Of a stretch of DNA of 56,332 bases, positions 2,856 through 53,421 are shown one piece after another. How positions within the stretch are numbered: position 1 is the first letter of the stretch; each line of letters starts with the position of its first letter. The DNA lies in the NCBI GenBank assembly GCA_002428325.1, contig DIVR01000077.1, positions 1-56,332 on the forward strand. The letters run 5' to 3'. The DNA comes from a bacterium UBP4_UBA6127 (GTDB lineage Bacteria; UBP4; UBA4092). The notes below the pieces were generated by a model that was not told the origin of the DNA, did not search any database, and saw nothing but the letters and a program-made list of their open reading frames with translations. The position numbers were made by a program, and so were the translations under genes.

Positions 2856-2876
2856 TTTTGACTGCTGTCAAAAAAC
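2856..2876. repeat. palindromic element copy a (TTTTTGACtGCTGTCAAAAAA, one mismatch)
   Basis: Seen in the sequence, 166 nt upstream of the ECF sigma start codon. Confidence 0.8.
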
Positions 2877-3022
2877 AGAAGCTGGGGGGAGCTGCCGCCT
2901 TTACCCTTTGCTGTCATTATCCATCTTTAATACGCGGGGAAAATTGTCTCTATATTTATCTTATCGGCTCATGGGAAGATATTGGAACACTGGGCGTATT
3001 AACAATAGGTAAGAGGAAAAAA

Positions 3023-3628
3023 ATGGGTTTTGAAAAAACCGAGCGGACAGATGAGGATTTAATGAAGTCTTATCTGGCAGGAGATCTGGATGCTTTTGAG
3101 CATCTGGCTCTCCGCTATGAGAAACTGTTGGTCAATTATGCCTATTCATTTCTTCGCCGCCAATCCGTAAGCGAAGATATCGTACAGGATGTCTTTATGA
3201 AACTGGTGGAAAATAAAAAGAATTATGATACCAACCGGCCTTTTCGGCCCTGGATTTATCGGATTGCCCGAAACCGGATTTATGATGAACTGCGGAAAAT
3301 CCGCCGCTGGAATATATTTCATTTCCGGACAGATACCGAACCGGAAGCTCCTCAGCAAATCGGGGAAATACCGGACCCTCTCGGCTCACCCAGGGAGACT
3401 CTAAATCAGAGTGAGCTATGTGCCAGCCTTCAAAAAGGCCTTGGGAAACTGGATACCCGGTCCCGGGACTTGCTGGTCCTAAGATATTTACAGAGGCTCC
3501 CGGTCCGGGAGGTCTCAGAAATCATGGGAATCCCCGAAGGAACCGTTCATTCGGGTACCCATCGGGCTTTAAAATTACTGGAAAAGATATTAAACCAATA
3601 TGGAATCACTGGGGAGGACCTGCCATGA
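3023..3628 (+). CDS. ECF-type RNA polymerase sigma-70 factor
   Basis: The ORF 2858-3628 is over-extended. The real start is ATG at 3023, after AAGAGGA at 3011-3017. Region 2-like segment DIVQDVFMKL..RPFRPWIYRIARNRIYD. Region 4 helix-turn-helix LPVREVSEIMGIPEGTVHSGTHRALKLL. Confidence 0.8.
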   Translation: MGFEKTERTDEDLMKSYLAGDLDAFEHLALRYEKLLVNYAYSFLRRQSVSEDIVQDVFMKLVENKKNYDTNRPFRPWIYRIARNRIYDELRKIRRWNIFHFRTDTEPEAPQQIGEIPDPLGSPRETLNQSELCASLQKGLGKLDTRSRDLLVLRYLQRLPVREVSEIMGIPEGTVHSGTHRALKLLEKILNQYGITGEDLP

Positions 3629-4407
3629 CTGATAATACGGATAAACTGGCTACCCTTTTATCCCAAGTTACCTCCCGGGAAACTTCGCCTGAATTCCATA
3701 CCCGGTTAATGAAGAAAATTCATCAAGCCGAAAGCCTGGCAACCCTCGGTACTACCCTGGGAGCTGTCTATCTGGAACCCAAAAAAACCTCTGAACCTCG
3801 GATGGCCCAATCAGGCGAAGCATTATTCGCAGGAGACCGGATCCTGACCCGGAAGACGGGTAAAACCTATATCCTCTTCAAAGATGGGACTCAATTATGG
3901 TTAAATCAGGAATCGACTCTGGTCATTGGGGATACCCCTCGGCAACACCAGCTTCCCTTGGGGGAATTACTGGCTTTTGTTACCCGGGCTAAAACCCGTA
4001 AAGACCGGTTTATCCTGAAAACCCCCTCGGCTTTGGTGGAAGTATTAGGCACCGAATTTGATATTGCCATCACCACTGACCAGTCCAGTCTGCTGACAGT
4101 CCTCAGGGGGAGAGTCCAATTCCAGAATGACAAAGGGAGTTTACGGCTGAAATCCAAGTACCAATCCACGGCTAAACCTTCCCAAAAACCTTCCAGGCCC
4201 CAAAAGGTAAAGACTCTGGAGAAAATCCAATGGACTCAAGACTTAGCCCTCCAGGCTGCTAAAGAAGAAAATAATACCCTGCCGGAGACCCTGACCCAAC
4301 CCGAAAGGTTTAATAACACCTTCTCTCCGGGTAAGACCCTTCTAATCCTGGCATTCACCGGAATCTTGGGTTATCTCCTGGGGTACCTTTATGGAATGTG
4401 GCAATAA
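3625..4407 (+). CDS. FecR-domain anti-sigma factor with C-terminal TM anchor
   Basis: ATGA overlap with the sigma factor stop codon, suggesting translational coupling. FecR-like beta-sandwich segment GDRILTRKTGKTYILFKDGTQLWLNQESTLVIG...VEVLGTEFDI. The single TM helix LLILAFTGILGYLLGYLYGMW sits at the extreme C-terminus. Confidence 0.6.
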   Translation: MTDNTDKLATLLSQVTSRETSPEFHTRLMKKIHQAESLATLGTTLGAVYLEPKKTSEPRMAQSGEALFAGDRILTRKTGKTYILFKDGTQLWLNQESTLVIGDTPRQHQLPLGELLAFVTRAKTRKDRFILKTPSALVEVLGTEFDIAITTDQSSLLTVLRGRVQFQNDKGSLRLKSKYQSTAKPSQKPSRPQKVKTLEKIQWTQDLALQAAKEENNTLPETLTQPERFNNTFSPGKTLLILAFTGILGYLLGYLYGMWQ

Positions 4408-4430
4408 TCAACCTGGTTTTCTGTTCGAAT

Positions 4431-4496
4431 AAACGGGGTGAGACCCAGGCTGATGGTTACAGCCTGGGTCCCCCCGGCAAAATAAAATAAACCTAA
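4431..4496 (+). other. conserved hairpin-containing non-coding element, copy 1
   Basis: aaacgg ggtgaGACCCAGGCTgatggttacAGCCTGGGTCcccccggcaaaataaaataaa. It has a 10-bp perfect stem at 4442-4470. It is near-identical to the element at 25581-25660. Confidence 0.6.
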
Positions 4497-4512
4497 AAGG
4501 AGAAGGAATAAG

Positions 4513-5040
4513 ATGAGATACTCGAAATTTGTAGTTCTGGTCGGTGCTTTGGCAACCTTTGGCATGTGCTTCTACCTGGGATATCAACAGGTTCTGGCAG
4601 TCCGGAAAGACCCTGGAAAGAATCCAGCCGCTCAATCAGCCAACCTCGCATCCAAACCTTCAAAAGATATTTATGAGATTGCGCTGACATTACGGCTCAA
4701 ACCCGATAAGGAAATCCTGGTAGGAACCCTTCCTGAAAAGGGAATTTCTATCTATCTTCTCACCCATGTCCTGCCTGAATCCAATCCTAAGACTGTTGAG
4801 TTAAACTACCAGCTGAGAAGCAAGGACGGCAAAACCGTTCTCTCAGCTCCCAAGATTAAAACCTTCCTGGATTCAGAATGCCGCTTAGAAAACCGTTATC
4901 CGGACTCGCCGTCATCTAAGTCCCCCTCTTATTACCAGATAACTTCATTGGTCACCCAAGCTCCAAACAATACCTATCAGGCCAAAATCCATATTGTAAT
5001 GAGTAATGTTGCCATGGACACATCCTCTCAGCCAAAATAG
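4513..5040 (+). CDS. hypothetical N-terminally anchored or secreted protein, likely ECF-sigma target
   Basis: ORF with RBS aaaggagaagg. N-terminal hydrophobic segment FVVLVGALATFGMCFYLGY. Confidence 0.45.
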   Translation: MRYSKFVVLVGALATFGMCFYLGYQQVLAVRKDPGKNPAAQSANLASKPSKDIYEIALTLRLKPDKEILVGTLPEKGISIYLLTHVLPESNPKTVELNYQLRSKDGKTVLSAPKIKTFLDSECRLENRYPDSPSSKSPSYYQITSLVTQAPNNTYQAKIHIVMSNVAMDTSSQPK

Positions 5041-5102
5041 GAAATGGGTCATAAAAAGGAGTCCTCTCCGTACCCCCACCGTCTCCTTACCGCCGTGATT
5101 AT

Positions 5103-5130
5103 TTGACAACTGTCAAAAAAATCGTATAAT
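5103..5130 (+). promoter_or_regulatory. near-consensus sigma70 promoter (TTGACA, 16-nt spacer, TATAAT) overlapped by palindrome copy b
   Basis: -35 TTGACA at 5103-5108 and -10 TATAAT at 5125-5130. The palindrome TTTGACAaCTGTCAAA at 5102-5117 covers the -35 hexamer and the spacer. Confidence 0.6.
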
Positions 5131-5256
5131 GAGGAATAGTAGGGATGTATTCAGTTAACCCGGCCAGATAACAGTTCAAGCTGACCAATCCCGATCACTG
5201 GCCGTTGTGGAAAACTGAGGAGACGGTGGGGGTCTCCTTACCTAAGGGGGGTTCTT

Positions 5257-5382
5257 ATGAAGGGCCCCAAACCTATCAGGGATTTCACGTTGGTAGAATT
5301 ACTGATGGTCGTATCTATAATAGCAATCCTGGCAGCCATCACCCTCTCCCTGATATCCGGTGAAATAACCAGCTTTCGGTAA
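5257..5382 (+). CDS. 41-aa type IV pilin/pseudopilin N-terminal stub, possible pseudogene
   Basis: MKGPKPIRDFTLVELLMVVSIIAILAAITLSLISGEITSFR*. It has a class III signal-like N-terminus but D rather than G at the -1 position. There is no globular domain. It is not in the ORF track because it is shorter than 60 aa. It is preceded by the G-rich sequence aaggggggtt. Confidence 0.35.
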   Translation: MKGPKPIRDFTLVELLMVVSIIAILAAITLSLISGEITSFR

Positions 5383-5483
5383 AAACCAGCCAGGTAAGTA
5401 CCAGGATGAAAAACTCCATCGCTTTTTCAGAAGGTAGGGGGATATATGCTCATCCTTTTCTTTTTATAAACCCGCCCCTTGCC

Positions 5484-6755
5484 TTAAAACAAGGTTTTTA
5501 GAAGATGAAGCATCTTGTTATATAGCAGGCCCCGATTTTCCTTCCATAGATATTCAGGGCTGGTTTTGGCATCCCCCATTTTCCATTGATAGAAATATCT
5601 CTCATTATTCCAGTTGATGGAATAATAGACATATTGGGAATCGGGAGAAAATCTATGAAATTCAAGGAATTGGGAATCCGCCGGAAGCGGAATCTGAAGA
5701 TTTGATTTTTCGGTCAAGTCAGCGACAAACCCGGGAGAGACGTAAACATATCGGCCGTTCCTGGATAGTTCAAAATACTCAGGAGAAGATGAGACATCTT
5801 TTTCCCCTTTTTTTAAAGAGATTATATCGTCAGGTTTATTCAAGGCAGCATCCCATTGTCTCAGCAGATAATGGTCCTGGGTCTCCGTATTTTCTTTGAT
5901 TTCCCACCAAACCGGTTTGTTCAGCCAGGACTGCCTGATTATCACTGGAATAAAATCATATTTAGCCCAGGCAGCCTGAAGGTTTCTCATGGGGAAGCTC
6001 TCCAGCCGTTTCCCTTCATAATCAATTTTCAGAGTTGTCTGGATTTTTAAAAGTTCATCTCCCTCCGGCCAGGAGAAAGGGTCATACCCAGGAGAAGCCG
6101 AATCTATTGCCAGAGCCAGGATTTCCCGGGAATTCCTCAAACCAACCGATACATAATCAGGGTGGGATTGGATAGTATAAGGTTGAATAAATCCTGTTGT
6201 CCCGGACAGGAAGGTCTTTTTCCCATCCAGAGGATTCAAGGCATAAAGAGAGCCTGGATATTTTATGGAAAAGGTCCGGTTAAAAACTTTGAATCTCTCA
6301 AAAGAAGCATCTTCGGGAGGAATCGTAATCAATAAGGGTTTATTGGGGTCGATTTGAGAAAAGACCAGGACTTTATCAGACCGGGCAGGCCACCAGGCTT
6401 GATGATAGAGTTTAGTTTTCCAAAGAGACTTGTTGAAATGGCCGGTCGAATCATACAAAACAGTTTCATAATTCCGAAGTTTGAACCGGTAATAAGGGGA
6501 AAGAATTGAATCAGCGACTCCCTGGGGATACGCTTCAATATCCCGATAAGTCGCCAGGACCCAATGATGGTCCGGAGAATAATCAGCCGTAATCAATTGT
6601 CTGCCAGCCGGGGGGGGGATCCTCTGAATCATCCCATCCTCGCTAATGAGGACTATTTCATTCCCCTTCTGCCAGACAATGCCGCACACACCCTGATAAG
6701 GCAGGCAAGCCATCAGGCCGGCTGCTAATACCATGAGAAATAAAAATCTTCTCAT
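5484..6755 (-). CDS. hypothetical secreted protein (signal peptide; beta-propeller-like)
   Basis: 423-aa ORF. N-terminus MRRFLFLMVLAAGLMA. Rich in W, Y and D, resembling beta-propeller proteins. Confidence 0.45.
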   Translation of the reverse strand: MRRFLFLMVLAAGLMACLPYQGVCGIVWQKGNEIVLISEDGMIQRIPPPAGRQLITADYSPDHHWVLATYRDIEAYPQGVADSILSPYYRFKLRNYETVLYDSTGHFNKSLWKTKLYHQAWWPARSDKVLVFSQIDPNKPLLITIPPEDASFERFKVFNRTFSIKYPGSLYALNPLDGKKTFLSGTTGFIQPYTIQSHPDYVSVGLRNSREILALAIDSASPGYDPFSWPEGDELLKIQTTLKIDYEGKRLESFPMRNLQAAWAKYDFIPVIIRQSWLNKPVWWEIKENTETQDHYLLRQWDAALNKPDDIISLKKGEKDVSSSPEYFELSRNGRYVYVSPGFVADLTEKSNLQIPLPADSQFLEFHRFSPDSQYVYYSINWNNERYFYQWKMGDAKTSPEYLWKENRGLLYNKMLHLLKTLF

Positions 6756-6900
6756 AACCCTCCTCTTTCGTCTCCCTCAAGACTTAAAAACCTTTCGGTT
6801 TATAAGGAGTTATTTCTTTAATACTTTCTCTACAACTATTAAACTACTGTAACAGACATATCAACTCGCTAACATATAACATAATTAACTTTTATCAGTT

Positions 6901-8217
6901 CTATTTTTGCTTCCAATCAACCGTTTGGCAGGAATTCGGCAAGACCTGCAAGGTAGTGGATATAATATATGGTTTTTTAATAATTTTCAACTCATGGGTC
7001 CCTTCCAGGATATGGGACACGGAAGGTTTTTTTTGGTATCCATCCAGTAATATCAAGGCATCAGAAGGGATTTCTTCCAAGACAATCCGCCCCTCTCCCC
7101 GATGGAATAACTGGCTGTTTTGAATAATATACCTTCCGGTGAAGAATAAAGATATCAATATCATCAATACGGACGGGATGGAGGCATGAGGAATTTTCAT
7201 CAGCCAGTATCCTGCCAAGAGAGTGGCGGGAAATCCATAAAGGGCAAAAACAGTCCAGACCTGAGGATTGTTATCAGGATAATGGGTCAACATCAACCCC
7301 AGGGTTCCCAGGGTTGCCAACAATAGAAGGGGTACTTCCACAGGATTCCAGGCCTTTTGCCCATGGACCAGAGGAAGCAGCAGTAACAGGGGAATGGAAA
7401 AAAGGGAAATCCGGTATTGGAAATAAAGGATATTCCGCCAATAGGCCTTTCCCAAATAGGTATAATCCTCAGGCCTTCCCGGCTGGGGATGGAAACTCAT
7501 CCAATGGATATTCTCAAAGAAATCTCCTGAACCCCAGTTGAGCCAGGTAATTCCCACCATCAGAACAGCCAGAGGAATCAATCCCCACAGCCAGGTTTTT
7601 ATTTCATCCGTATGATGGCCCTTCAACCACCAGGCAAGGACCAGCACCGGAAAGTAAAACCCTACCTGCAGATGGCACCAGGCAGCCAGGCTGTAAGCCA
7701 AAGCCGGAGCCAGAGGAGAGTATTTCCCCTCACAATACCCAAACAGGTAATAAAAAAACATGGCGCTGGCCGCAATCACCAGGGCATAGGTTTCCAGAAA
7801 TCCATAAAATAGAACCGTGAACCCGGAACTCATAACCAAGCCAAAAGGGATCCACCCTTTGACTCCCCACCGTTCGCAGATTCGATAGAGGTAATACACA
7901 AAGATACTGCCTGCCAGACAGGCCACAAAATGCATGGCATATCGGCCATCCCAGCCCAGGAGATAACCGCCCGTCTTGTAACTCAGTTGATATAGAAAAA
8001 AGGAAAGCATCCTTCTTTTTCGAAACCAGACATCTCCCTCGACTTCTCTCAACCAGAGGTCAGCACTGCCTTCCCCTAATTGCACTGAACGGAAAAACCA
8101 GAAAACCAGGAAAAACACCCCGGACAGCAGCCAAGGTAAATATATTTCAATCCTGGAATTTCCAGAAAATGAAGAGAATTGAGATTGTTTCGGCAATCGG
8201 CTCATAGTCGGCAACAT
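6901..8217 (-). CDS. polytopic integral membrane protein, possibly GT-C-fold glycosyltransferase (DUF2723/PMT-like)
   Basis: 438 aa with at least 10 predicted TM helices. Acidic first-loop motif REVEGD. The family assignment is tentative. Confidence 0.3.
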   Translation of the reverse strand: MLPTMSRLPKQSQFSSFSGNSRIEIYLPWLLSGVFFLVFWFFRSVQLGEGSADLWLREVEGDVWFRKRRMLSFFLYQLSYKTGGYLLGWDGRYAMHFVACLAGSIFVYYLYRICERWGVKGWIPFGLVMSSGFTVLFYGFLETYALVIAASAMFFYYLFGYCEGKYSPLAPALAYSLAAWCHLQVGFYFPVLVLAWWLKGHHTDEIKTWLWGLIPLAVLMVGITWLNWGSGDFFENIHWMSFHPQPGRPEDYTYLGKAYWRNILYFQYRISLFSIPLLLLLPLVHGQKAWNPVEVPLLLLATLGTLGLMLTHYPDNNPQVWTVFALYGFPATLLAGYWLMKIPHASIPSVLMILISLFFTGRYIIQNSQLFHRGEGRIVLEEIPSDALILLDGYQKKPSVSHILEGTHELKIIKKPYIISTTLQVLPNSCQTVDWKQK

Positions 8218-8261
8218 ATTACCACACCCAACCGGATTTTTTCGACCCTCTTCTTGTCAAT

Positions 8262-8296
8262 AAAAAACCCGGATAAGAAATACTCTCATCCGGGTG
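8262..8296 (-). terminator. rho-independent terminator after pilQ
   Basis: Minus-strand RNA is cccggaugagaguauuucuuauccggguuuuuuua: a 7-bp stem followed by a U-tract. A TTGACA hexamer follows it on the minus strand. Confidence 0.6.
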
Positions 8297-8320
8297 GGTT
8301 AGCTCCTATTCAGAAAAAAT

Positions 8321-10303: not shown

Positions 10304-10389
10304 TGAAAGAAACCTCCGTCCCGGGCAATCAATCTATCATAGGACCTGTAACATGTAATTTAGCAGTTTCATGGCTGGGATGATCCTTT

Positions 10390-11163: not shown

Positions 11164-11187
11164 CTTAGGTTATCCTGCCGAGGAGCC

Positions 11188-25518: not shown

Positions 25519-25544
25519 TGACCGAAAAAAAAGTTCTTCGGTCA
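25519..25544. promoter_or_regulatory. perfect 8-bp inverted repeat TGACCGAA-N10-TTCGGTCA in the Rrf2/LVIVD divergent intergenic region (candidate operator)
   Basis: Seen in the sequence. It resembles the TGACA..TGTCA palindrome family. Confidence 0.35.
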
Positions 25545-28385: not shown

Positions 28386-28512
28386 ATTTTGGATTAACCT
28401 GGACACCTTGTTTGACAGATTGTCATCCCTGTATTACCTTAATCTGGTATGTTTTAGCGATGCGTTATTCCTGTTTCATCTAAATTGAATCCATTGATTG
28501 GAGAGGTTTATC

Positions 28513-32070: not shown

Positions 32071-32080
32071 AGCCGTCAAC

Positions 32081-32110
32081 CGGAAACGGAGATCAGGGTC
32101 TCCGTTTCCG
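32081..32110 (+). terminator. 12-bp perfect stem-loop after the TPR gene (no U-tract)
   Basis: CGGAAACGGAGAtcagggTCTCCGTTTCCG. Confidence 0.4.
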
Positions 32111-32248
32111 ACTGACTCATGACATCAGAAAGGGTCCTTAAAAAAAATACGGAACTGTTAGATTAATAAAGCTATCTTATTCCGGGTCCTTCTTTTGACA
32201 AAGAAGGCTACCTTAAAAAATAACTTAAATAATCTCAATGGTTTAATC

Positions 32249-32266
32249 TTTTGACAGCTGTCAAAA
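32249..32266. repeat. palindromic element copy c, perfect TTTTGACAGCTGTCAAAA, between convergent gene ends
   Basis: Seen in the sequence. Confidence 0.85.
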
Positions 32267-32335
32267 GACACCTGTTTTAGTAGTCCAACCTGTCTAACCA
32301 GGAGAACCTGTCAGAGCAATCCGACTGATTATACC

Positions 32336-33992: not shown

Positions 33993-36002
33993 ATGCCATA
34001 TCCGACCGGGAAAAATATTTTCATTATATTATTTATCACTCTATTGACCCTTATATCCAGCCAGACCTTGGCTCTGGGAGTAGATACTGCATCTTTAAAG
34101 GAACCTAAGGTCTATTCAGCCTTCCAAGCACCTCTATTGGTAAATGACTTCAGCCTGGAGACAGGGTATCGTCAGGTCAGGGTAAGCTGGACAAATTCCA
34201 CTGTTCCCGAATATGTTGCCACCCGGATTATGAGAAAAGAGGGCAGTGCATCAAGCTCTACCACGGATGGAGTTCTGTTATATGAAGGGAATGGGACCTA
34301 TTGTGTGGACAGTAATTTGGCCAATGGGATAACTTATTATTATACGGCCTACCTCCGGGATACGAGCCAATACTATGCAGAGGGAACCAGCCTGAGGGTT
34401 ACCCTTTCCCCGGCGCCAGTCAACCAGTTTACCGCCATGCCTAAAGGAACCTCCGTGATATTAAGCTGGAACAATCCCCACCAGGAGGATTATCTGGCAA
34501 CATTGGTTGTGCGAAGGACGGATCGATATCCTGCCAGCCCGACTGATGGGGAAGTTGTCTATTGGTATAACGGGAATTCCTGTGAAGATAAAAATAAGGT
34601 CATGGGCCAGACTTATTACTATGCCGCTTATGCCCATGACACCCAATACATATTTGCTCCTTCAGCAAAAGACCAGATAACTTTTGGGGATACCATTCCC
34701 CCTGATTCAGTGACCGTTCTTTCTGTTTTACCAGGCGATCAAAAAGTAAATTTGGCGTGGACTCCCCCGGAGGATATCGATTATGTATCCACCTTGATTT
34801 GCCGAAGGGATGACCGATATTCTTTTTATCCGGGAGATGGGGATGTCGCATACTGGTATAACGGGACGCAATATACAGACCAGCCGTTAGTTAATGGGAA
34901 AACTTATTACTATACTTTCTATGCCCAGGACAAAAATATGAATTTTTCGTCAGGATGGCAGGAATCTGTTTATCTGGACAGCTGGCAGAATCGAATGAGT
35001 GATTTTGATGTGGCTGCCGATACATCCAACTGGGCCTATGAACCGGTTGAAGGAATTACCGGGATGCCGGGTGTGTCCTGGAACTCTCTTTATGCTGAGC
35101 ATACCGGCTTAATGAAAATAAGCTTCTCAGGAGAAACAGAAGGAATCAAAATGACCGGGTTGGGAAGAGTAAACTCCAATTATTCAACTGGTTGGGTCAA
35201 TCTGAAGATAACCTTTAGGGAAGATTCGACTAATGATAACATGGAAATCCTGCCGGTGGGGTTGTTTTTCAGCAATCCAACCAGTTGGGAACTTAGAGGG
35301 GTCGGGGCCTCCTGGACAGGAGAAAATCAGAGTTTAAAAGGGAGCTGGCATACATGGGAAACCTGGATGGAATCAAGAAACTATTTAACTCAGCCTCAAC
35401 TGATTCTGAAAAACAACGGACATCCGGGAACCCTCTATATTGATTCTGTGGAATTGAACCATGTCCCGGCTCCGGCATTCTCCATAGCCACTTCTTATTC
35501 CTATGAATATGGGGATTTCTCTCCAGCAGAGGATACGGCCCAATGGGGGTTTGAAACCCTGGATGAAACCACTGGCGGTATGCCGGAGATATCCATTATC
35601 AATACCAATGACCATCGATCTTATGATGCGCTTCTTTTAACCTTTACCGGTCCCGATCAGGGGTTGAAGATGACCAGCAAGACCCTTTTTGATACCCAGC
35701 CATCCGCTCCTCTATATTTATACTACATGGCAAAAACAACAGTCGAGGATACCACCTATTTCGGACTAGATATCGGTGGATTTCTTTATTCTGAGGACAG
35801 TAGTGACCCGGAGCTTTATGAAATCGGGGGAAGATATGATATTGGATTTTCCGGTACCGGCTGGGACGAACGAATGATCTATCTGAATCCATTGGCAGGG
35901 CACACCCAGGGCCGGATTCAAATGATCATCCGAAATCATGATTATTACCCTTTCCAGGTATTACTGGATAATTTCAGTTTCCATTCTTTAGCAGAGAATT
36001 AA
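33993..36002 (+). CDS. secreted protein with three FN3-like modules and a C-terminal beta-rich region
   Basis: Signal peptide. Module ends GITYYYTAYLRD, GQTYYYAAYAHD and GKTYYYTFYAQD. Confidence 0.55.
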   Translation: MPYPTGKNIFIILFITLLTLISSQTLALGVDTASLKEPKVYSAFQAPLLVNDFSLETGYRQVRVSWTNSTVPEYVATRIMRKEGSASSSTTDGVLLYEGNGTYCVDSNLANGITYYYTAYLRDTSQYYAEGTSLRVTLSPAPVNQFTAMPKGTSVILSWNNPHQEDYLATLVVRRTDRYPASPTDGEVVYWYNGNSCEDKNKVMGQTYYYAAYAHDTQYIFAPSAKDQITFGDTIPPDSVTVLSVLPGDQKVNLAWTPPEDIDYVSTLICRRDDRYSFYPGDGDVAYWYNGTQYTDQPLVNGKTYYYTFYAQDKNMNFSSGWQESVYLDSWQNRMSDFDVAADTSNWAYEPVEGITGMPGVSWNSLYAEHTGLMKISFSGETEGIKMTGLGRVNSNYSTGWVNLKITFREDSTNDNMEILPVGLFFSNPTSWELRGVGASWTGENQSLKGSWHTWETWMESRNYLTQPQLILKNNGHPGTLYIDSVELNHVPAPAFSIATSYSYEYGDFSPAEDTAQWGFETLDETTGGMPEISIINTNDHRSYDALLLTFTGPDQGLKMTSKTLFDTQPSAPLYLYYMAKTTVEDTTYFGLDIGGFLYSEDSSDPELYEIGGRYDIGFSGTGWDERMIYLNPLAGHTQGRIQMIIRNHDYYPFQVLLDNFSFHSLAEN

Positions 36003-44458: not shown

Positions 44459-44548
44459 TAGTTTTTTATAAAGATGTATCGCCGGGAGGACTGTTTTTTT
44501 ATAGTCCGATTGTACCGGTTCACTCAGAGGGCAAGGAGGTGACTTTAT

Positions 44549-45199: not shown

Positions 45200-45215
45200 T
45201 ATGTGATTTTGTGTG

Positions 45216-45250
45216 AAAAACAGCCAGCCTTGGTTTCTGGCTGTTTTTCA
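45216..45250 (+). terminator. rho-independent terminator after the pilin gene
   Basis: cagccagccuugguuucuggcuguuuuu. Confidence 0.75.
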
Positions 45251-45354
45251 CCGATTTTACATAAAAACCAAATTGGTGTAATCTTTTTAAAGTATTCTTT
45301 ATATTGAGTTTCTTATAGAAATTAAATCTAATTAGAAAAGGAGTAATAAGTAAA

Positions 45355-46104
45355 ATGAAAAAAGTATTGGCTTTATTTTCTTTAACACTATTGACGGCAG
45401 CCTTCTCTTTTGCCCAAATCACTCCCATCAATGCCACCCTTAAAGCAGTCGATGCCAATGGGTATGCAATCAACACCGGTATTACTTACACTATTGTGGG
45501 TGTCAATGTGACCCCCCTTAATTATGATCCCACCCGCTTACAACGTTACATTGTTGATACAGCTACCGGTTGGGGCATGATGATTGATAAGTCGGGTGGA
45601 TTTGCTACTAATCCTGCCTATAATGTTGGTGACCTTATGAAAGTAACCGGAACAATTACCATGTACAATGGTTTGATGGAATTTACCCCCACCGATACAA
45701 CTGAAAATTTGGGGTCTGGTTATGCTGTTTCTACCGCAGTGATTCCCTCAATTGCTTCTTGCACTGCTTTTGATCAAACGTTGGCTTCTGGTGGGGAATT
45801 TTATGAAAGCCGTTTAGTCCGCTTGAATAATGTATCTATTTCGGGTGGAGATGCCTGGCCTGCAGCTGGTATTAATGCTAATGTCAACATTACGGATGCT
45901 TCCGGTGCTACCATGATTTTACGTATTGATAAAGATACCGATGTGGATGGATCTACTCAACCAACAGGTTCATTTAATGTAATAGGTGTTATTACTCAAT
46001 ATGATAACTCTTCTCCTTTTAATACTGGGTATCAGATTATGCCGACCCAATTATCCGATATTGGAGCTGCCGCTGTTGCCGACTGGTCAGTAATGGCTAA
46101 ATAA
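45355..46104 (+). CDS. secreted protein with ExeM/NucH-N-like OB modules (paralogous to C-terminal half of next gene)
   Basis: Signal peptide. Repeats V(T/E)G(T/V)(I/V)T.YNGL(M/L)E(F/L) and G..QYD.SSP....YQIMP shared with the 46324-48111 product. Confidence 0.5.
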   Translation: MKKVLALFSLTLLTAAFSFAQITPINATLKAVDANGYAINTGITYTIVGVNVTPLNYDPTRLQRYIVDTATGWGMMIDKSGGFATNPAYNVGDLMKVTGTITMYNGLMEFTPTDTTENLGSGYAVSTAVIPSIASCTAFDQTLASGGEFYESRLVRLNNVSISGGDAWPAAGINANVNITDASGATMILRIDKDTDVDGSTQPTGSFNVIGVITQYDNSSPFNTGYQIMPTQLSDIGAAAVADWSVMAK

Positions 46105-46120
46105 TCAAGCGGTTTTTTGA

Positions 46121-46170
46121 TAATTTAAGAAAAGATAATCAACCCTCCTGTAAGAAGCACAAACCTTGCA
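46121..46170 (+). terminator. rho-independent terminator
   Basis: cccuccuguaag...cuugcaggaggg followed by uuuuuuuu. Confidence 0.6.
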
Positions 46171-46323
46171 GGAGGGTTTTTTTTACTGGAAACAGGCAGG
46201 TTCCTTGTTTCTGAATAATGAGCATTAATCAAGGTTTGCTTAATTTTTGAAAAAGCATTATATTATGAAAATAGCCCCTCCTAAAAAATGGGGTTAAACA
46301 ACAAAATGGAGGGAGGGTTTTTG

Positions 46324-48111
46324 ATGAAAAGTAAGAAAATATTTTTTGCAATGATGATTTTAGTATTAATCCTGGTGCCTATTCTGGCGGGGGCGGTTTC
46401 CACCACCCTGGTTATCAGCGAGTTTAAGACCAGAGGTCTGAATGCCAGCGATGAATTTATCGAAGTCCGCAATATCAGCGCCTCACCGATTGACCTGGGG
46501 GATTATAAGATTGATTATGCATCTTCCAGCGGTTCTATCAGCAACCGGGTTACTTTTACATCCGGGACCTATCTTCCGGCCGGGAAGACTATCCTGGCAG
46601 TCAATGCAGCCTCTTCAAGCTATTTAACAATGGCGGATGCCACTTATGGCAGCGGGATTGCTGACAGCGGCCAATTGGCTGTTCGTAAAACCAGTGATGA
46701 TTCCGTGGTAGATGCGGTGGCCTGGGGAACTGGGATTACCTTTGCTTTTGGGAATACGGATACAACCTTGGGATATACTTCATCTGATACAACCAGCAGC
46801 CGGGAACGGAAACCTGCCGGGGTGAATACCACCGATACCGACAGTAACCTGAATGATTTTATGGTTCAGGCAAGTCCCAGCCCTACCTCTCTGGGTATCC
46901 CCAAACTGATGAATCTGGTTCAGTCTCCCTTTGTGCCTAATGCGTCCCAGGCTTGCAATCTTACCGTAACAGCCTATGGAACCGGCGGCAATACCCTCAG
47001 TAAACTGACAGTTTCCTGGTCGGTTGGGACCGTTGCCCAGGCTTCCATTGAAATGACGGCCGGCGCCAGCAGCAGTTATACGGCAGCTTTAGCCGGACAA
47101 GCCAATGGAGCGGCCGTTCGTTATAATATTACGGCTTATGATAATGCCGGAAATACCGTTGCCCTCGAAAAAGGCTATGTGGTGGGAACGACCCAGATTG
47201 CCACCTTACGGGAATCCGATGCTTATGGAACTTCGTTAGTGGAAGGTCTGGCCGCCCGGGCAGCCGGAATTGTAACGGTTGATGCGGGAGTCTTTGCCAG
47301 CGGCAGTTTATCCGTTTATATGCAGGATAACAGCGGTCCCCAGGGTTGGAGCGGGTTGAATGTTTATTCACCTCTTTCCACTTATGGGAATGTCTCCGCC
47401 GGAAATTCAGCGGTGGTCGAGGGTGTGGTTACCCTCTATAACGGATTATTGGAATTAGCGGTCGGCCCAACCTATGGCGGCGGTACCGTCGATATAACGG
47501 GCGGCCCTTATCCGTTGCCAGCCGCTGTGATTCTCCCCAGCCTGGATGGCAGCCTGGAAGATTATGAAGGCATCCTGGTGGTAATACCGGATTTCTATTC
47601 CACCTTTACAGCCTCCACTACCGGCAGCCAGAATTATGATGGTTGGAGAAGCGGCGATCCCAATGATAAAGTTACCCTTCGGCTTTGGAGTCCTACCGGA
47701 CTTTCAGCTACGCCTCCTGCCGGTTATCCTATCGGCCTGAAAGGTATCCTGGGCCAGTATGATTACAGCAGCCCCTATCTGGACAGCTATCAGATTATGC
47801 CTCGGATGACGGCTGATTTCGGCAGCACTTTGGTTTTAACACCCCCGGAATCCAAGGCAGTGAAACCTAATCAGGTGGTTAGTTTCAGTGTCTCTGGCGG
47901 AACCGGACCTTATACCTGGTCGGTTGTATCTTCAGGCGGAGCCTCTGGCAACCTGGATTCTACCACCGGTAGCACCGTTAACCTGACAGTCGGTCCTAAT
48001 AACGGGATTCTTTATCTGGTGGTTTATGATAGTGGCAGTGTTTACGGAGCCTCGGGTCTTTTGACTGTTACCCCGACTTCTGCCCCTTTATTCTGGGGTT
48101 TGACTGAATAA
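46324..48111 (+). CDS. secreted lamin-tail-domain (LTD) protein with ExeM/NucH-N-like OB modules, no nuclease domain
   Basis: LTD segment LVISEFKTRGLNASDEFIEVRNISASPIDLGDYKIDY...FTSGTYLPAGKTILAV. Start at 46324 after ggagggagg. Confidence 0.6.
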   Translation: MKSKKIFFAMMILVLILVPILAGAVSTTLVISEFKTRGLNASDEFIEVRNISASPIDLGDYKIDYASSSGSISNRVTFTSGTYLPAGKTILAVNAASSSYLTMADATYGSGIADSGQLAVRKTSDDSVVDAVAWGTGITFAFGNTDTTLGYTSSDTTSSRERKPAGVNTTDTDSNLNDFMVQASPSPTSLGIPKLMNLVQSPFVPNASQACNLTVTAYGTGGNTLSKLTVSWSVGTVAQASIEMTAGASSSYTAALAGQANGAAVRYNITAYDNAGNTVALEKGYVVGTTQIATLRESDAYGTSLVEGLAARAAGIVTVDAGVFASGSLSVYMQDNSGPQGWSGLNVYSPLSTYGNVSAGNSAVVEGVVTLYNGLLELAVGPTYGGGTVDITGGPYPLPAAVILPSLDGSLEDYEGILVVIPDFYSTFTASTTGSQNYDGWRSGDPNDKVTLRLWSPTGLSATPPAGYPIGLKGILGQYDYSSPYLDSYQIMPRMTADFGSTLVLTPPESKAVKPNQVVSFSVSGGTGPYTWSVVSSGGASGNLDSTTGSTVNLTVGPNNGILYLVVYDSGSVYGASGLLTVTPTSAPLFWGLTE

Positions 48112-48142
48112 CTGCGGTTTATTTCAATTTAACTTTCTTACC

Positions 48143-48180
48143 GGGGTTCTCTCCATCAAGAGAACCCCTTCTTTTATTTC
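48143..48180 (+). terminator. rho-independent terminator
   Basis: gggguucucuccaucaagagaaccccuucuuuuauuu. Confidence 0.6.
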
Positions 48181-48201
48181 CTTATCAATAGAGTCTCACC
48201 T

Positions 48202-48759
48202 TTGGGAAAAGTGTTTCTAAGACCGGGATTTTCCCCTGTCTTTATGGAAAATACGACAGTTTTATCCTCTTTTATTAAAAAAAACTTGGATTTTATTCAG
48301 ACCTGTCATACAATCACTTCCATTATGGAACATACCTACATCTTTTCTGAGGGGCACTGGGTTGCCCATGGCACCTATTTTGGCATGGATGGCAAACCGG
48401 TTCCCTTGGAGGGAATATCCAGAATCATTCATTCTGCCACACTCTGGCGTAATGACAGCACGATGAAAATTCTCCATCCCTCACCGGTGGAGTATCTGAA
48501 TGTCTATGAGATCCAGCCTTTCCATAATAAGGATTGGACGACCTGGCGTTCCCATCATCCGGCCCTGGGTTATCTCAAAGGGAAATTTATGGTGGTAGGC
48601 GAATGTATCCTTTCCGGGTATTCCTCCGAAAATGGCCTCTATTCCGGGACCGAAACCCTGATTCAAATCAGTCCCTCTCAATATCGCAGCTGGGGGATGT
48701 CTTTTAAATCCGGTGACAAATTATCATCCTGGATGTCCATTCTTACCAAAAAATCCTGA
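48202..48759 (+). CDS. hypothetical protein (beta-barrel-like; start uncertain, may be 48244 or 48322)
   Basis: The ORF has a TTG start in the track. Protein-like composition. No clear RBS. Confidence 0.35.
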   Translation: MGKVFLRPGFSPVFMENTTVLSSFIKKNLDFIQTCHTITSIMEHTYIFSEGHWVAHGTYFGMDGKPVPLEGISRIIHSATLWRNDSTMKILHPSPVEYLNVYEIQPFHNKDWTTWRSHHPALGYLKGKFMVVGECILSGYSSENGLYSGTETLIQISPSQYRSWGMSFKSGDKLSSWMSILTKKS

Positions 48760-48760
48760 G

Positions 48761-48780
48761 TTTTTGACAGCTGTCAAAAA
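48761..48780. repeat. palindromic element copy d, perfect TTTTTGACAGCTGTCAAAAA, 1 nt after the stop codon
   Basis: Seen in the sequence. Confidence 0.85.
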
Positions 48781-49233
48781 CTTCTTTCTGTAAAACCTTT
48801 CTCGGAAGATGCTCTCTTCCTTTTTTCCCCTTAATCAGGAATGATTCTTATTATTCCTGAGAGTTTTCACTGTTTCATATCCCTTCCCCTTCAGATTTGA
48901 TTCGGACTCTTAACGGAGTGCCTCTGAGATGCTCCGTTACTGATCCCTTACCTCTCAGGAAAACTTTTAGGGTGATTTTCGGAATGATTATTAAGATGGG
49001 AAAAATCTCTTTGGGAATCCGATGAAGGGGATTTATAAGAAAAACAGGGGTGGATTGCCCCAAGTTGGGGAAAATTAAAGTTCCCAGCCAGCCCATCCAA
49101 GTCAACAAAACCCTCCTTTAAACCAATATCTTTGTGTGTGGTATGATAAGAGGTCGTTTCCGGAATGCCTGGGATTTATCCGCAGAAGAAACGGTTCCGT
49201 ATTGAATTTGTTCAGGGTTAGGAGAATATAATC

Positions 49234-51525
49234 ATGATGCCATATTACAAACGATTTTTAAAAGGGATTCTTCCTTTTCTAAAAGGGATTCTTCCTTTGG
49301 CCTTGGGTCTGGTGATGGTTGGAAGTGTTTGGGGGGTTGAGAAAATCAGTTCTCCAACGACAGATAATTTACCTGTCCAAAGTCTTCCCTATACCGGTCC
49401 CATTGAGACCCCTTCCTTTTTGGAATTTGATGCTCAATGGGAATTCCTGCCCTATGATATCTCCTACGATAAAGTAACCTCAAATGCATATAAGGGCCAA
49501 TGGGGGACTGTCCCGGTTCCCGGATATTGGACAGAAGCCAAGATGGCTCCCGGCTCCAAGAAAGTCTGGCCGGGTCCGGCCGAGTTTTCCAAAGGCACCT
49601 CCGGAATGGGGGCGGCTTATTCGACTGCTTTTGCCTGGTACCGGAAAAAGTTTGATACCCCCAAAGAGTTAAAGCCTTTTGATGCCCGGATATTACTTTC
49701 CGGGGTGAAATGGAACAGCCAGGTCTGGCTGAATGGCCATTATTTAGGGTTCCATAAGGGGGGGTATTCTCCTTTTGAATATGATATTTCCAAATATTTT
49801 AAAGCCGGAGAAGAAAATGAGCTGTTAGTCCGATTGGGATCTTATCGAACCATTCCCCGGGGAGACAAAGGGCTTCCAGCCATGATGGTGGGGGATTTAA
49901 AGACCCTGCCAACCCGGGCGGCGGGTATTACCGAACCGGTGCTTCTGCGTTTTTACCGCAGAGCGGCCATCAAATCGGTTTTTGCCATTCCAAACGCTAA
50001 AAATAAGACGGTAACCGTTCGGATTACCCTGGATAATTATGACCAGCTGAAACCGGATGATAAATTGGATATCTATTTAAGCACTAATGATTCCATGGTC
50101 CCTCTCCATGAGGTGAGCATGGAAATTGAAAGGGATACCACCAATCGGATGGCCGGCAATGAAGTAACCATGGCTATTCCAGACTCGAAACTCTGGTGGC
50201 CTTGGAGACCCTTCCTATATAAGGTGGTGGTCTTGCTGAGAGATAAGAATAATCAGGCTTTGGATATTGAACCGGCCACTTTCGGGCTTCGGGATACTGA
50301 AGTCAGAGACGGCCATTACTACCTCAATGGGCAGCGGTTCCAACTGCGGGGATTCACCTTCCCGGAAGGAGCTGAAAGAATCCTGGGAGCGGAGCAGTCC
50401 ACAGATACGGCGTTCCTGAAGAAATTCCTTTATGAACTGCCGCGAAAAGGTAATTTCAATTCGATCCGAGTTCCTAACGGGCCTGTCTCTCAAAACCTGT
50501 TGAATCTTTTTGACCAGATGGGGATGCTGGTTATCCAGGAATTCCCGGTAACCCGGTACAGTAACCAGTGGGAAGATACCACCTTTGGAGTCTTTGCCCT
50601 GAAAGAATACCAGGATACCCTGCCTTTGTATTGGAACCATCCTTCCATAGCGATGTGGTCTCTTTCCAACCAGTCCTGGGATTCGGTGAAACGAAGTGTG
50701 GAATTGGCCTATGTCTATCCGACTTTAAAACGGCTGGACCCCAGCCGGCCTATTCTTCGGGGAGCCGATGAAACCCCGGAGGTGGTGGATATTTTCATGA
50801 ATGACGGCATGGCCAACCTTTCCCTCTCCGAATTCAGGAAGAAGGCGGAATCCCTCAATGAATATCGGAAAACCCAGGCGAAATTCTCTTCGGGGTATCT
50901 GGATAATCCATCCAAACCCGATGGTACCTGGAAAGATGATAAATTGGTGAAACTCCATTTTGGCGATAAAGCCACCCCGGCGGAGATGAGTTATCAGCAT
51001 GCCGAGATTGCCGCCCAACAGACAGAAATTTTACGGATGAACCAGTTTGATGGCATTTTCCCGGCTCAATACAGCGATTGGAGCCGGATGAAAGAATGGG
51101 ATTCGACTAAAAATAAGGAGAAGTTCCCGGGACCGAAACTGACCTATCAGGCATTAAAAAATGCTATGTCGCCGGTGGCGGCCTGCATGGACCTGCGGTC
51201 TCAGCAGTTCAAAGTCGGCCAGACCCTCAGTTTGCCGGTCAAAGCCGTCAATAGTACCCCGGGTGAATATCCCATTAAACTGGAAATATTCCTTTTGAAA
51301 GATAATCCAAATTTCGATTCCCGGAAGGCTAAGGATTTGGCAGGGAAAAACCTGTTCTACAACTCCAGCACAGCCCAGATCACGGGTTATACCATTGCGG
51401 AAGGAACGGTCCCGATTGCCCTTGATAAGAAAATGGCAGGCACCTGTTACCTGGTGTTCCTGGTAACTCAAACCGATACCGGAGAAGCGACCCTCAGCCA
51501 ACGGCGTATCCAGGTTCTGAAATAG
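49234..51525 (+). CDS. secreted glycoside hydrolase family 2-like (beta-mannosidase/beta-galactosidase-type)
   Basis: GH2 sugar-binding domain ...SQVWLNGHYLGFHKGGYSPFEYDISKYF...ENELLVRL. TIM-barrel segment ...YYLNGQRFQLRGFTF... Confidence 0.65.
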   Translation: MMPYYKRFLKGILPFLKGILPLALGLVMVGSVWGVEKISSPTTDNLPVQSLPYTGPIETPSFLEFDAQWEFLPYDISYDKVTSNAYKGQWGTVPVPGYWTEAKMAPGSKKVWPGPAEFSKGTSGMGAAYSTAFAWYRKKFDTPKELKPFDARILLSGVKWNSQVWLNGHYLGFHKGGYSPFEYDISKYFKAGEENELLVRLGSYRTIPRGDKGLPAMMVGDLKTLPTRAAGITEPVLLRFYRRAAIKSVFAIPNAKNKTVTVRITLDNYDQLKPDDKLDIYLSTNDSMVPLHEVSMEIERDTTNRMAGNEVTMAIPDSKLWWPWRPFLYKVVVLLRDKNNQALDIEPATFGLRDTEVRDGHYYLNGQRFQLRGFTFPEGAERILGAEQSTDTAFLKKFLYELPRKGNFNSIRVPNGPVSQNLLNLFDQMGMLVIQEFPVTRYSNQWEDTTFGVFALKEYQDTLPLYWNHPSIAMWSLSNQSWDSVKRSVELAYVYPTLKRLDPSRPILRGADETPEVVDIFMNDGMANLSLSEFRKKAESLNEYRKTQAKFSSGYLDNPSKPDGTWKDDKLVKLHFGDKATPAEMSYQHAEIAAQQTEILRMNQFDGIFPAQYSDWSRMKEWDSTKNKEKFPGPKLTYQALKNAMSPVAACMDLRSQQFKVGQTLSLPVKAVNSTPGEYPIKLEIFLLKDNPNFDSRKAKDLAGKNLFYNSSTAQITGYTIAEGTVPIALDKKMAGTCYLVFLVTQTDTGEATLSQRRIQVLK

Positions 51526-51635
51526 TTTCCACCAAAATAAAAGTGGAACTAAACCGGAAAATCTTAAACAGCCGGGGAGTCCCCGGCCACAACGGAAGGA
51601 CTCTCTGGATTTGAAGCTGAAAGCTCTGGTCTGGC

Positions 51636-52103
51636 CTAGCGGTGGCCTGCCGAGTCTTTTGGAGAGAGCTGAAAAACATCAATCAACTGGGCATCAAGGG
51701 AGAATCTTCCCGGCCCGGTCAGTAACAGGGTAACCGCCACGGTCCAATAGGCCAAAGGCAGTTCATATGAAGGCCCTTGCCCGGTACCAATCCAGGGATG
51801 TCCGGAAGGAATATGAACCATCAACAAGGCCACTGTCATGGTGGAGAGTATTCCCAGCAATGCTAAGGGAGTAACCAATCCAAAAGTGATGGCCAGCCCG
51901 CCCCCGAATTCTGATAACGCTGCCAGGAATTGGAAAAATCCCGGGACCGGAGCATCGGGGCCCATCCAGCTGAAAGGTGTCTGGATTTTCCCCCAGCCAT
52001 GCTGGACAAAAGCCAACCCTACAATCACCCGAAGCAACAACAGTCCGGTGGACTTTCGGCAATCCGGAAAACTTCCATAACTTTTCAATATCAAATTTTT
52101 CAT
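51636..52103 (-). CDS. DoxX-family membrane protein
   Basis: LLLRVIVGLAFVQHGWGKI. Start at 52103 after ggagga. Confidence 0.65.
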   Translation of the reverse strand: MKNLILKSYGSFPDCRKSTGLLLLRVIVGLAFVQHGWGKIQTPFSWMGPDAPVPGFFQFLAALSEFGGGLAITFGLVTPLALLGILSTMTVALLMVHIPSGHPWIGTGQGPSYELPLAYWTVAVTLLLTGPGRFSLDAQLIDVFQLSPKDSAGHR

Positions 52104-52221
52104 GAGAGTTCCTCCATAGTGAAGCATATCTCTATAAACATAAGTATATATCTGATAAGTTCCTTGGTAAAAGAGAGGGGCAGATGGAAGATGGTATAAT
52201 CAAATTTCATGGAGGTCTTAG

Positions 52222-52758
52222 ATGATGGATGAATCCTTAGGACGAATATTTATAGAGAATTCCCTTTTCAGGTTCAGGGCATTGAAAGACCTGGGGGAGA
52301 AGGCGATTGGAGAGTTGGATGACGGAGAGCTGACCCTGTCGCCTGATTCAGAATCCAATTCAGTGGCGGTCATCTGCCAGCATCTTCATGGGAATATGTT
52401 TTCCCGGTGGACTCAGTTTCTTACTACGGATGGAGAAAAGGAGACCCGGGACCGGGATGCTGAATTTACCCCGCCGGGCTCTCTATCCAGATCTGAATTG
52501 ATGGAACGTTGGAATGAAGGCTGGGCAGCTGTTTTTACGGCTTTGGAAACCCTGGAGCCGGTGGACCTGCTGAAAATTATCACCATCCGGGGCCAGGGTT
52601 TAACCGTAATGGATGCCATTCTTCGGCAAATCTCCCATTATGGGTATCATGTGGGACAGATTGTCTATCTGGCTAAACAGCTCAGGGGTTCCCAGTGGAA
52701 GACCCTCTCTATTCCCCGGGGAAAATCCAGGGAATACCGTCCCCAAAAAAGGGATTAA
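52222..52758 (+). CDS. DinB/YfiT-like (DinB_2) metal-dependent helix-bundle protein
   Basis: Histidines ICQHLHGNMF ... ISHYGYHVGQIVYLAK. RBS ggagg. Confidence 0.55.
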   Translation: MMDESLGRIFIENSLFRFRALKDLGEKAIGELDDGELTLSPDSESNSVAVICQHLHGNMFSRWTQFLTTDGEKETRDRDAEFTPPGSLSRSELMERWNEGWAAVFTALETLEPVDLLKIITIRGQGLTVMDAILRQISHYGYHVGQIVYLAKQLRGSQWKTLSIPRGKSREYRPQKRD

Positions 52759-52824
52759 TACCTTTGTGTTTCTATCAAGTGATGTAAAATAGGGTTAGAA
52801 CCATAACCAGGGGAGGTGAGGCTG

Positions 52825-53073
52825 ATGTTAAGAGAACATCCACCTTGTCCAAAATGCGGTTCCCGGAAGGTGGCCCAGATTGTTTATGGGCTGATTAATG
52901 TAACAGACGAATTCAAGAAGTTTCTAGACCGGGGCGATGTCCTCCTGGGAGGGTGTTGTGTGGATTCTGATTCCCCTTCCTGGCATTGCCATCAATGCCA
53001 GCATGATTGGGGTAATTGGGCTGATGATGAGCAGGAACCTCCCTCCTGGGACCGAAAAGAAAATTTGATTTGA
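52825..53073 (+). CDS. small zinc-ribbon protein (CPKC ... CHQC)
   Basis: RBS gggaggtgagg. Two CxxC pairs. Confidence 0.5.
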   Translation: MLREHPPCPKCGSRKVAQIVYGLINVTDEFKKFLDRGDVLLGGCCVDSDSPSWHCHQCQHDWGNWADDEQEPPSWDRKENLI

Positions 53074-53296
53074 TTCAAGGTTTCTGATGGTTGAAAAACG
53101 GCGGCCTCTTCAGGAAGCTTTTCAGTGAAAAGGTTAGGATTGGCTTGTGTGTTAGGGGATGATTCCCGGATACTATTGTTTCGTGGCTCAGAGACCTTCC
53201 TTCGAAAAACTCTGCCTGAGCCCACTTGGGAAATTAATAATCATTCTGAAGATGGAGAGCCGCTTAATTTAAAGGTTATTGATTTCAAAAGACTTA

Positions 53297-53421
53297 TTTT
53301 TTGACAGCTGTCAAAAGGCAACCCTATGATTATCAGCCTTATATGTTTTTGACGCCTGTCAAAAAGGTACTATATCTATAGCCAGAATCTCTATTTTGAC
53401 ACCTGTACTTACCTTTAATAC
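53297..53421 (+). repeat. three phased tandem units (~45 bp) each with palindrome/-35 TTGAC(A/G) and a -10-like hexamer
   Basis: Unit 1: TTGACA at 53301-53306, 18-nt spacer, TATGAT at 53325-53330. Unit 2: TTGACG at 53349-53354, 16-nt spacer, TATATC. Unit 3: TTGACA at 53396-53401, 14-nt spacer, TAATAC. The palindromes degrade progressively from unit 1 to unit 3. Confidence 0.6.

Follow-up and report, generated by a model that had tools for sequence, protein, structure and literature searches.

Intergenic 18-bp palindromes in an uncultured UBP4 bacterium, a possible dispersed repeat family akin to REP and dRS3/NIME elements

The repetitive extragenic palindromic (REP) elements of Escherichia coli are targets of insertion sequence (IS) insertion and sites of rearrangement. 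REPs are imperfect palindromes of 20–40 nt with a GTAG or CGTC tag at one end, and they are extragenic, mainly lying between unidirectional and convergent open reading frames (ORFs; PMC3733652). The dRS3/NIME repeats of Neisseria are built from inverted arms with a variable centre and variable spacers, form strain-dynamic arrays, receive mobile-element integration, and lie near variable genes (PMC1797815). Here we describe an 18-bp palindrome, TTTTGACAGCTGTCAAAA, that recurs between the genes of a 56-kb stretch of DNA from the uncultured bacterium UBP4_UBA6127 (contig DIVR01000077.1 of assembly GCA_002428325.1, positions 1–56,332; hereafter the window). Our preferred but tentative reading, to which we assign a probability of about 0.4, is that the palindrome represents a lineage-specific family of short dispersed palindromic repeats resembling REP or dRS3/NIME elements.

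Copies, anatomy and placement of the palindrome

Searching the window for TTTTGACAGCTGTCAAAA with at most three mismatches gave six matches against 0.06 expected, and none of 100 shuffles reached six. The family comprises six full copies and one truncated copy at five independent loci, numbered here M1 to M7, which bears out the at least seven intergenic copies proposed in the initial annotation. M1 (2856–2873, TTTTGACTGCTGTCAAAA) has one central mismatch and both arms intact; its centre is ~158 bp upstream of the start (3023) of an extracytoplasmic function (ECF) sigma factor gene and 213 bp past the stop of the preceding gene, and its counterpart in strain L171 is a perfect TTTTGACAGCTGTCAAAA. 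M2 (5101–5118, ATTTGACAACTGTCAAAA) has two mismatches and is conserved in strains L170–L172. Three copies are perfect, namely M3 (32249–32266), which lies between a TPR gene (stop 32070) and a Band_7 gene (stop 32336) that converge on it, M4 (48762–48779), which lies 3 nt past the stop of a gene for a 185-aa protein and 25 nt ahead of a canonical terminator (48804–48820 plus a T run), and M5 (53299–53316), which is the first unit of an array. In this array, M6 (53347–53364, TTTTGACGCCTGTCAAAA; two mismatches) follows M5 after 48 bp and M7 (53394–53411) follows M6 after 47 bp; M7 reads TTTTGACACCTGT followed by ACTTA and is intact only through nucleotide 13. The positions given by the initial annotation were right to within 1–2 nt and its half-degenerate copy is real (M7), but two of the three copies that it credited with one mismatch (M2 and M6) have two. 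Its looser relatives did not hold, as the one at 28411 has a different arm spacing and a broken arm, and those at 32188–32207 and 25519–25544 are unrelated hairpins. The 9-mer GACACCTGT occurs twice in the window, at 32267–32275 on the plus strand, where this partial copy abuts M3, and at 53398–53406 inside M7, and GACAGGTG occurs 16 nt past the M5 of strain L030; we read these occurrences as possible partial copies or as traces that earlier insertions may have left.

The constrained unit is TTGAC-N4-GTCAA in T/A flanks, with TTTTGAC and GTCAAAA as the fuller arms. The arms match at 10 of 10 positions in all copies, whether in the window, in the other strains, in a relative (L031) whose GH2 protein is 75% identical, or in contigs L012 and L023. 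Sites with one arm mismatch occur at chance level and mostly within coding sequence, so that arm conservation is all-or-none. The four central bases are free (at least eight forms: AGCT, TGCT, AACT, GCCT, GGCC, GGCT, AGTT, and GCTT), the 75% relative is less strict in the outer T/A flanks, and no arm changes of the compensatory type were seen among the copies. Because the arms are invariant and one helical turn apart, the centre is free, and compensatory changes are absent, we favor sequence-specific recognition of double-stranded DNA by a symmetric protein over a purely structural hairpin.

All copies are intergenic (P ~3e-5 for five independent loci in a window that is ~87% coding and ~13% non-coding), as the initial annotation had stated, and they persist in non-coding DNA only, mostly downstream of genes. 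Among nine copy-bearing regions, none is divergent, four or five are convergent, and four or five are tandem, depending on whether a 41-aa ORF downstream of M2 is counted; the convergent bias has a P of 0.005–0.07, depending on the null and on the same ORF. The window has six divergent intergenic regions, and none of them contains a copy. The placement directly after a stop codon (M4) and between convergent genes (M3), which had led the initial annotation to doubt a simple promoter, was also found here. This distribution, extragenic and between unidirectional or convergent genes, matches that reported for REP elements (PMC3733652).

Because it lies between a stop codon and a canonical terminator, M4 is probably in a 3' untranslated region (UTR). 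Near M3, a GC-rich hairpin of 18 pairs (32075–32116) immediately 3' of the TPR gene stop is likely a bidirectional terminator for the convergent TPR and Band_7 genes. Such surroundings raise the alternative that the element acts as RNA, in the classical RNA role of REPs, as a 3'-UTR hairpin that stabilizes the upstream mRNA or attenuates or terminates transcription. Their position between a stop codon and a canonical terminator makes it probable that M3 and M4 are transcribed, both were flagged as terminator-like on both strands by a terminator scan, and the hairpins fold better than shuffles (z -2 to -4). Yet the stems, rich in AT, are weak (-5 to -11 kcal/mol) and do not have the GC-rich stem and U tract of an intrinsic terminator, while ordinary GC-rich terminators stand right beside the copies and M5–M7 lie beyond a likely terminator. 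The arms, moreover, never vary in a compensatory manner, and an RNA hairpin has no need of perfect two-fold symmetry, so we consider an RNA role highly unlikely. As for known RNAs, Rfam returned no hit at the gathering score and one chance-level match in E-value mode, and no tRNA was found.

Copies occur singly or in arrays of two or three, whose start-to-start spacing is 48 and 47 bp in the window, 48 and 46 bp in the 75% relative, 49 bp in L023, and 47 bp in L012. The array spacers (28–31 bp) are mutually unrelated, and when the four arrays were aligned, conservation was limited to the palindromes and the distances between them; the idea of a conserved RNA downstream of the arrays was rejected for want of shared sequence there. 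The copy-bearing intergenic regions likewise share no similarity past ~20 nt, and because the similarity stops there, the element is the palindrome alone. A longer repeat, a miniature inverted-repeat transposable element, or a gene cassette was rejected on the same ground, the flanking proteins being not paralogous. Solitary half-sites are not enriched in the window and show no excess in coding DNA, so that a DNA uptake sequence was rejected as well.

The arrays bear some likeness to CRISPR, with an 18-bp repeat, unrelated spacers of about 30 bp, a terminal repeat (M7) with a degenerate 3' end, one spacer that differs between strains, and an AT-rich stretch past the window array. The repeat is shorter than any known CRISPR repeat, however, the arrays have no more than three units, and at most loci a copy stands alone. 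The window and the related loci contain no cas gene, the array region had no match in phage or plasmid collections, and the 18-mer is absent from viral contigs. We therefore give a CRISPR-like mini-array almost no credence.

Strain differences at the copies

The uncultured host species, at 93–100% DNA identity, is present in several ENA, Logan, JGI, and NCBI assemblies, which allowed strains to be compared across the copies. When the window is aligned with strain L030 (96.6% identity over 14 kb), the match stops exactly at the right edge of M5, and past it L030 has a DEAD/MZB helicase gene and a gene for a 1051-aa protein in place of M6, M7, and the SPOR/TPR gene of the window. In strain L035, the array is retained, while the M6–M7 spacer and ~22 nt after M7 are replaced between flanks that are ~96% identical; synteny then stops after another 84 bp, at a region of YD-toxin cassettes. 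A different change affects M3, which two independent assemblies (ERZ27315034 and ERZ922797) show split between 32253 and 32254; the interruption comes after nucleotide 13, the same position at which M7 is truncated. The insertion junction reads TTTTGACAGCTGT directly followed by GGGATGGGGG... and both contigs stop ~230 bp into the foreign DNA (L165 8952–9186; L166 4460–4680), as expected for a repeated IS. The insert encodes a C-terminus with a ...NTNNCMEAYAKMLRKK... motif that has a weak match to an IS256-variant transposase (NCBIfam NF048019, E = 0.048), and the inserted DNA is probably an IS. If the insertion arose by an 8-bp staggered cut at this site, the cut would, as we infer from the one junction recovered, fall symmetrically on the dyad (ACAGCTGT).

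In the 75% relative, the GH2 gene is inverted relative to the gene for the 185-aa protein, and a three-copy array of the motif lies just past the 3' end of the homologue of the latter, where the window has the single copy M4. The copies account for ~2% of the intergenic DNA, and two of about seven structural breakpoints coincide with them (P ~0.008). Small as these numbers are, they point one way, namely that the palindrome copies are preferred sites of insertion and exchange.

We infer that a protein would recognize the copies, that DNA beside them would be exchanged by recombination, and that the family would extend through the genome. If the repeat reading is right, the palindrome would be a symmetric recognition site, at the DNA level, for a dimeric site-specific protein encoded elsewhere, of either a recombinase/transposase type or a ParB type, and the formation of a small cruciform might assist recognition. 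DNA would break, take up insertions, and be exchanged preferentially at the copies; by recombining with one another, they would trade the adjoining or intervening DNA, and the dyad of the palindrome would be where an IS inserts.

Among the systems described so far, dRS3/NIME is the closest analogue. Shared with it are conserved arms around a variable centre (ATTCCC-N8-GGGAAT in dRS3, TTTTGAC-N4-GTCAAAA here), intergenic dispersal, arrays with unrelated spacers, differences between strains (seen here in a small sample), mobile-element integration, and arrays beside variable genes of surface or toxin type. The two differ in sequence, the ATTCCC-N8-GGGAAT pattern being absent from the element, and in host lineage; the spacers are 28–31 bp here versus 50–150 bp in NIME, and the arrays here have at most three units. 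With the REPs and BIMEs, the element has in common an extragenic position between co-directional and convergent genes, frequent clustering, species-specific sequence families, and the role of target for IS insertion (probable here) and of rearrangement site, whereas REPs are GC-rich, imperfect, oriented, and 20–40 nt long, and the element is an untagged perfect palindrome of 18 bp with AT-rich ends (TTTT and AAAA). By its sequence the element belongs to neither the REP nor the NIME family, and the relation to dRS3/NIME is one of analogy, not homology.

The DNA to the right of the array (window 53317–56332; L030 14084–22292; L035 10240–18270) is a hypervariable island in which several assemblies break. 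It holds the SPOR/TPR gene in the window, the helicase gene and the gene for the 1051-aa protein (defence-like) in L030, and a YD-shell toxin gene with repeated cassette-like segments in L035. Elsewhere, the window carries a type II secretion operon and genes for prepilin-type proteins, HEAT and TPR proteins, an ECF sigma/FecR pair, glycosidases, an H+-pyrophosphatase, and an Rrf2 regulator. A tandem duplication at 10–2643 comprises a HEAT-repeat gene and a gene for a 168/179-aa protein, the copies being 62% identical in amino-acid sequence, and L171 is without one copy. At 33993–36002, the window encodes a 669-aa protein without a Pfam domain, which in other strains is replaced by, or expanded into, a 1219-aa SBBP-repeat protein (L161 5651–9310); to judge from these sequences, the locus appears to encode a variable surface-type protein. 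In L170 (12282–15089; GCA_002382585.1), the ECF sigma/FecR operon is missing beside the gene for a 175-aa protein and its place is taken by genes for an Mrp/ParA-like ATPase, an FeS_assembly_P protein, and LpxB; this break, at window position ~4433, lies away from the palindromes.

Possible recognition by a regulator or a ParB-type protein

Each arm of the palindrome contains TTGACA, so that a -35 hexamer is present on both strands, as the initial annotation had noted. Its two fusions to good -10 hexamers were also recovered, both on the plus strand. The first is a sigma-70-type promoter-like site at 5103–5130 (TTGACA-16-TATAAT, 12/12), formed by M2 and its flank with the left arm as the -35, and the second, at 53301–53330 (TTGACA-18-TATGAT, 11/12), is formed by M5 and its flank. 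When 15 copies were read in both directions, a -10-like hexamer stood 16–18 nt away in four of the 30 arm directions, as compared with 9.9% of random intergenic positions, and only these two sites are convincing as sigma-70 promoters. For M1, no -10 hexamer was found at class II distance. In the repeat reading, TTGACA would be a by-product of the arm sequence, a credible promoter arising only where a -10 falls 16–18 nt away.

Downstream of M2 lies an unannotated ORF of 41 aa (5257–5382, plus strand) with a prepilin-type N-terminal motif (RDFTLVELLMVVSIIAILAAI). AGGGGGG precedes it as a ribosome-binding site, and three other strains encode exactly the same amino acids. The ORF could specify a mini-pilin or be a pseudopilin gene in truncated form, and the M2 promoter may drive it; because of its good ribosome-binding site and its identity across strains, a promoter role of M2 is plausible. 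The 423-aa protein encoded next to M2 was an orphan in the homologue search.

The initial annotation could not match the half-site to any operator family and suggested, besides a REP-like structural repeat, the operator of a global repressor that occludes the -35 hexamer. The palindrome does fit a described box, in that the predicted box of the FNR-like regulator HcpR1, wyTTGACnnnnGTCAArw, is matched exactly (PMC1274295), and it also fits chromatin immunoprecipitation sites of FnrL, including TTGACagctGTCAA (PMC2908626). It might then be the operator of a global dimeric helix-turn-helix (HTH) regulator of the CRP/FNR type that overlaps or replaces the -35 and represses or activates the adjacent promoters. 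Half-sites one helical turn apart with a free centre are typical of HTH dimers, the promoter-like sites at M2, upstream of the conserved pilin-like ORF, and at M5 would suit such a regulator, and M1 lies upstream of the ECF sigma/FecR operon. Against this stand the -10 frequency, which is close to the background, the lack of copies in the six divergent regions together with the convergent position of four or five of the nine copy-bearing regions, and the position of M4 between a stop codon and a terminator. The consensus and the half-site geometry are shared with the HcpR/FNR-type box (wyTTGACnnnnGTCAArw; TTGA-N6-TCAA). Graded weak sites are absent; five loci in 56 kb is a density far above that of an HcpR-type regulon, the window contains neither a CRP/FNR gene nor an hcp-type target, the copies differ from HcpR/FNR boxes in their positions relative to genes, and arrays spaced at 4.5 helical turns fit neither class I nor class II geometry. 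We regard a global operator as unlikely. Of the two roles suggested earlier, the REP-like one fits the intergenic restriction without divergent regions, the 3' or convergent placement, the arrays, the all-or-none arms, and the breakpoints and insertion at copies, but occlusion of the -35 is not supported as a general function, and an operator or -35 function is plausible for at most two copies, M2 and M5.

Proteins of the ParB family offer another kind of symmetric recognition. The KorB operators (OB sites) of IncP plasmids are perfect palindromes spread across the intergenic regions of a 60-kb replicon, and some of them overlap -35 hexamers. The repABC plasmid pAMI4 has an experimentally used parS (a RepB site), GTTGACAGCTGTCAAC, and a cluster of three such sites (PMC9040568), and the 14-nt core of our palindrome, TTGACAGCTGTCAA, is identical to the core of this parS, so that here too the sequence coincides with a known site. 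A ParB-family protein specific to the lineage, similar to Noc or KorB and encoded elsewhere in the genome, might bind or load at the palindromes with high affinity. They would then form a chromosomal array that is centromere-like or that silences or organizes DNA, and would not be a mobile repeat. All-or-none conservation of sites is typical of parS and KorB operators. Contig L012, which came from the genome scan, encodes a ParB_N/HTH protein (Pfam 1e-12; best PDB match Caulobacter ParB, 4e-10) whose GERR motif is changed to GYRR, and its gene is flanked by the motif, with sites upstream, in its 3' end, and as a downstream pair 47 bp apart. Palindromes recur at the same positions with orthologues of 79% and 49% identity, and the tetranucleotide correlation of the L012 lineage with the window is 0.925, as compared with 0.94 for proven relatives and no more than 0.86 for unrelated loci. 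ParB-like genes were near the 18-mer in five of about 150 loci.

The points on the other side are that no ParB-like gene occurs in the ~91 kb covered of the species, that the sites of contig L158 lie only beside its ParB gene and are not dispersed, and that a strict intergenic restriction with IS and junction association is unexpected for chromosomal parS or Noc sites. The window differs from repABC and KorB systems also in being chromosomal, since rpoB lies 10 kb to its left on the same 116-kb ENA contig (ERZ27315036), in having T/A flanks where pAMI4 has G/C, and in that the central GC of repABC parS is not conserved in the family. Neither a DnaA-box cluster nor a canonical parS (TGTTTCACGTGAAACA-like) was found in the window; identity with a replication origin or canonical parS was ruled out on this basis, and the lack of origin signs also speaks against ParB loading sites. 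In sum, we hold ParB-type sites to be possible, though doubtful. With similar doubt, the putative protein may be an orphan ParB of the P0017/P0025 family, without ParA and with GERR changed to GYRR, acting as a chromosomal KorB or Noc. Its nucleation on arrays at gene ends and island borders would organize or silence the flanking, often newly acquired DNA, and would also make the sites preferred for insertion and exchange. A ParB-like partner is the most interesting possibility remaining.

Two tandem ParB_N genes without ParA, one of them with GYRR, were seen in L012 (1147–3017) and L158 (8968–11020 and 10982–11380), flanked by TTGAC-N(1,4,5)-GTCAA palindromes; in L158, the palindrome heads a unit of ~110 bp that is duplicated 288 bp apart. 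Scans of genome and metagenome collections for the 18-mer gave, among the matches listed, mostly unrelated single matches. Among them were a Bacteroidales family of 22-bp repeats, a site conserved in Gammaproteobacteria, a repeat of one large project, and a satellite in contig L148, all of them unrelated to the window. In gut Bacteroidales contigs (L053, L054, L078, L082, L094, L132, and others), the 18-mer lies inside a run of ~22-bp repeats (AAAGCTTTTTGACAACTATGGA...), and L007 and L095 have a ParB-like gene ~5.3 kb from it; the run may represent the iterons or the partition region of some mobile element. In contigs of the JAAUYG... series (L051, L058, L061, L080, L091, L100, L107, and L145), the 18-mer is centred in a longer repeat with conserved flanks of ~45 nt, which is found in many contigs of one metagenome project and is unrelated to the window. 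The satellite of L148 (1700–2900) is low in GC, with units of ~22–24 bp (TTTTGACAGCTGTTCGCAAA) and an orientation switch, and the 18-mer arises at the switch point.

Weighing of the repeat family and its meaning

Several observations weigh against a dispersed repeat family. Of the ~91 kb of sequence covered for the species, the ~35 kb outside the window hold no copy, and the ~91 kb contain no gene for a RAYT, a recombinase, or a ParB; among the Pfam matches of the window and the related loci, there was no RAYT (Y1 transposase) either. At 18 bp, the element is shorter and more symmetric than the classical REPs and has no GTAG/CGTC tag, its hairpins are weak, as described above, and its array spacers are much shorter than the NIME RS units. 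The count of breakpoints is small, the match behind the IS assignment at M3 is weak, and the convergent bias has a P of 0.03–0.07 once the 41-aa ORF counts. M2 and M5 carry strong promoter-like sites, with a conserved small ORF downstream of M2, and the retention of the motif beside the gene for the 185-aa protein in the 75% relative could equally reflect a locally selected function.

The feature is well documented yet ordinary in kind. If the repeat reading holds, this lineage would have a palindromic intergenic repeat family of its own that marks the differences between strains, such as island borders, IS insertion, and spacer exchange. If an orphan ParB-like partner were real, it would be a chromosomal counterpart of the plasmid KorB-type systems. 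Because the sequence coincides with both a proven ParB-family site and a predicted FNR-family box, motif-based predictions of regulons or parS would mis-assign the palindrome. As a repeat family, the copies would help to type strains and to predict, in metagenome bins, where assemblies break and which loci vary, and they would point to a sequence-specific partner protein.

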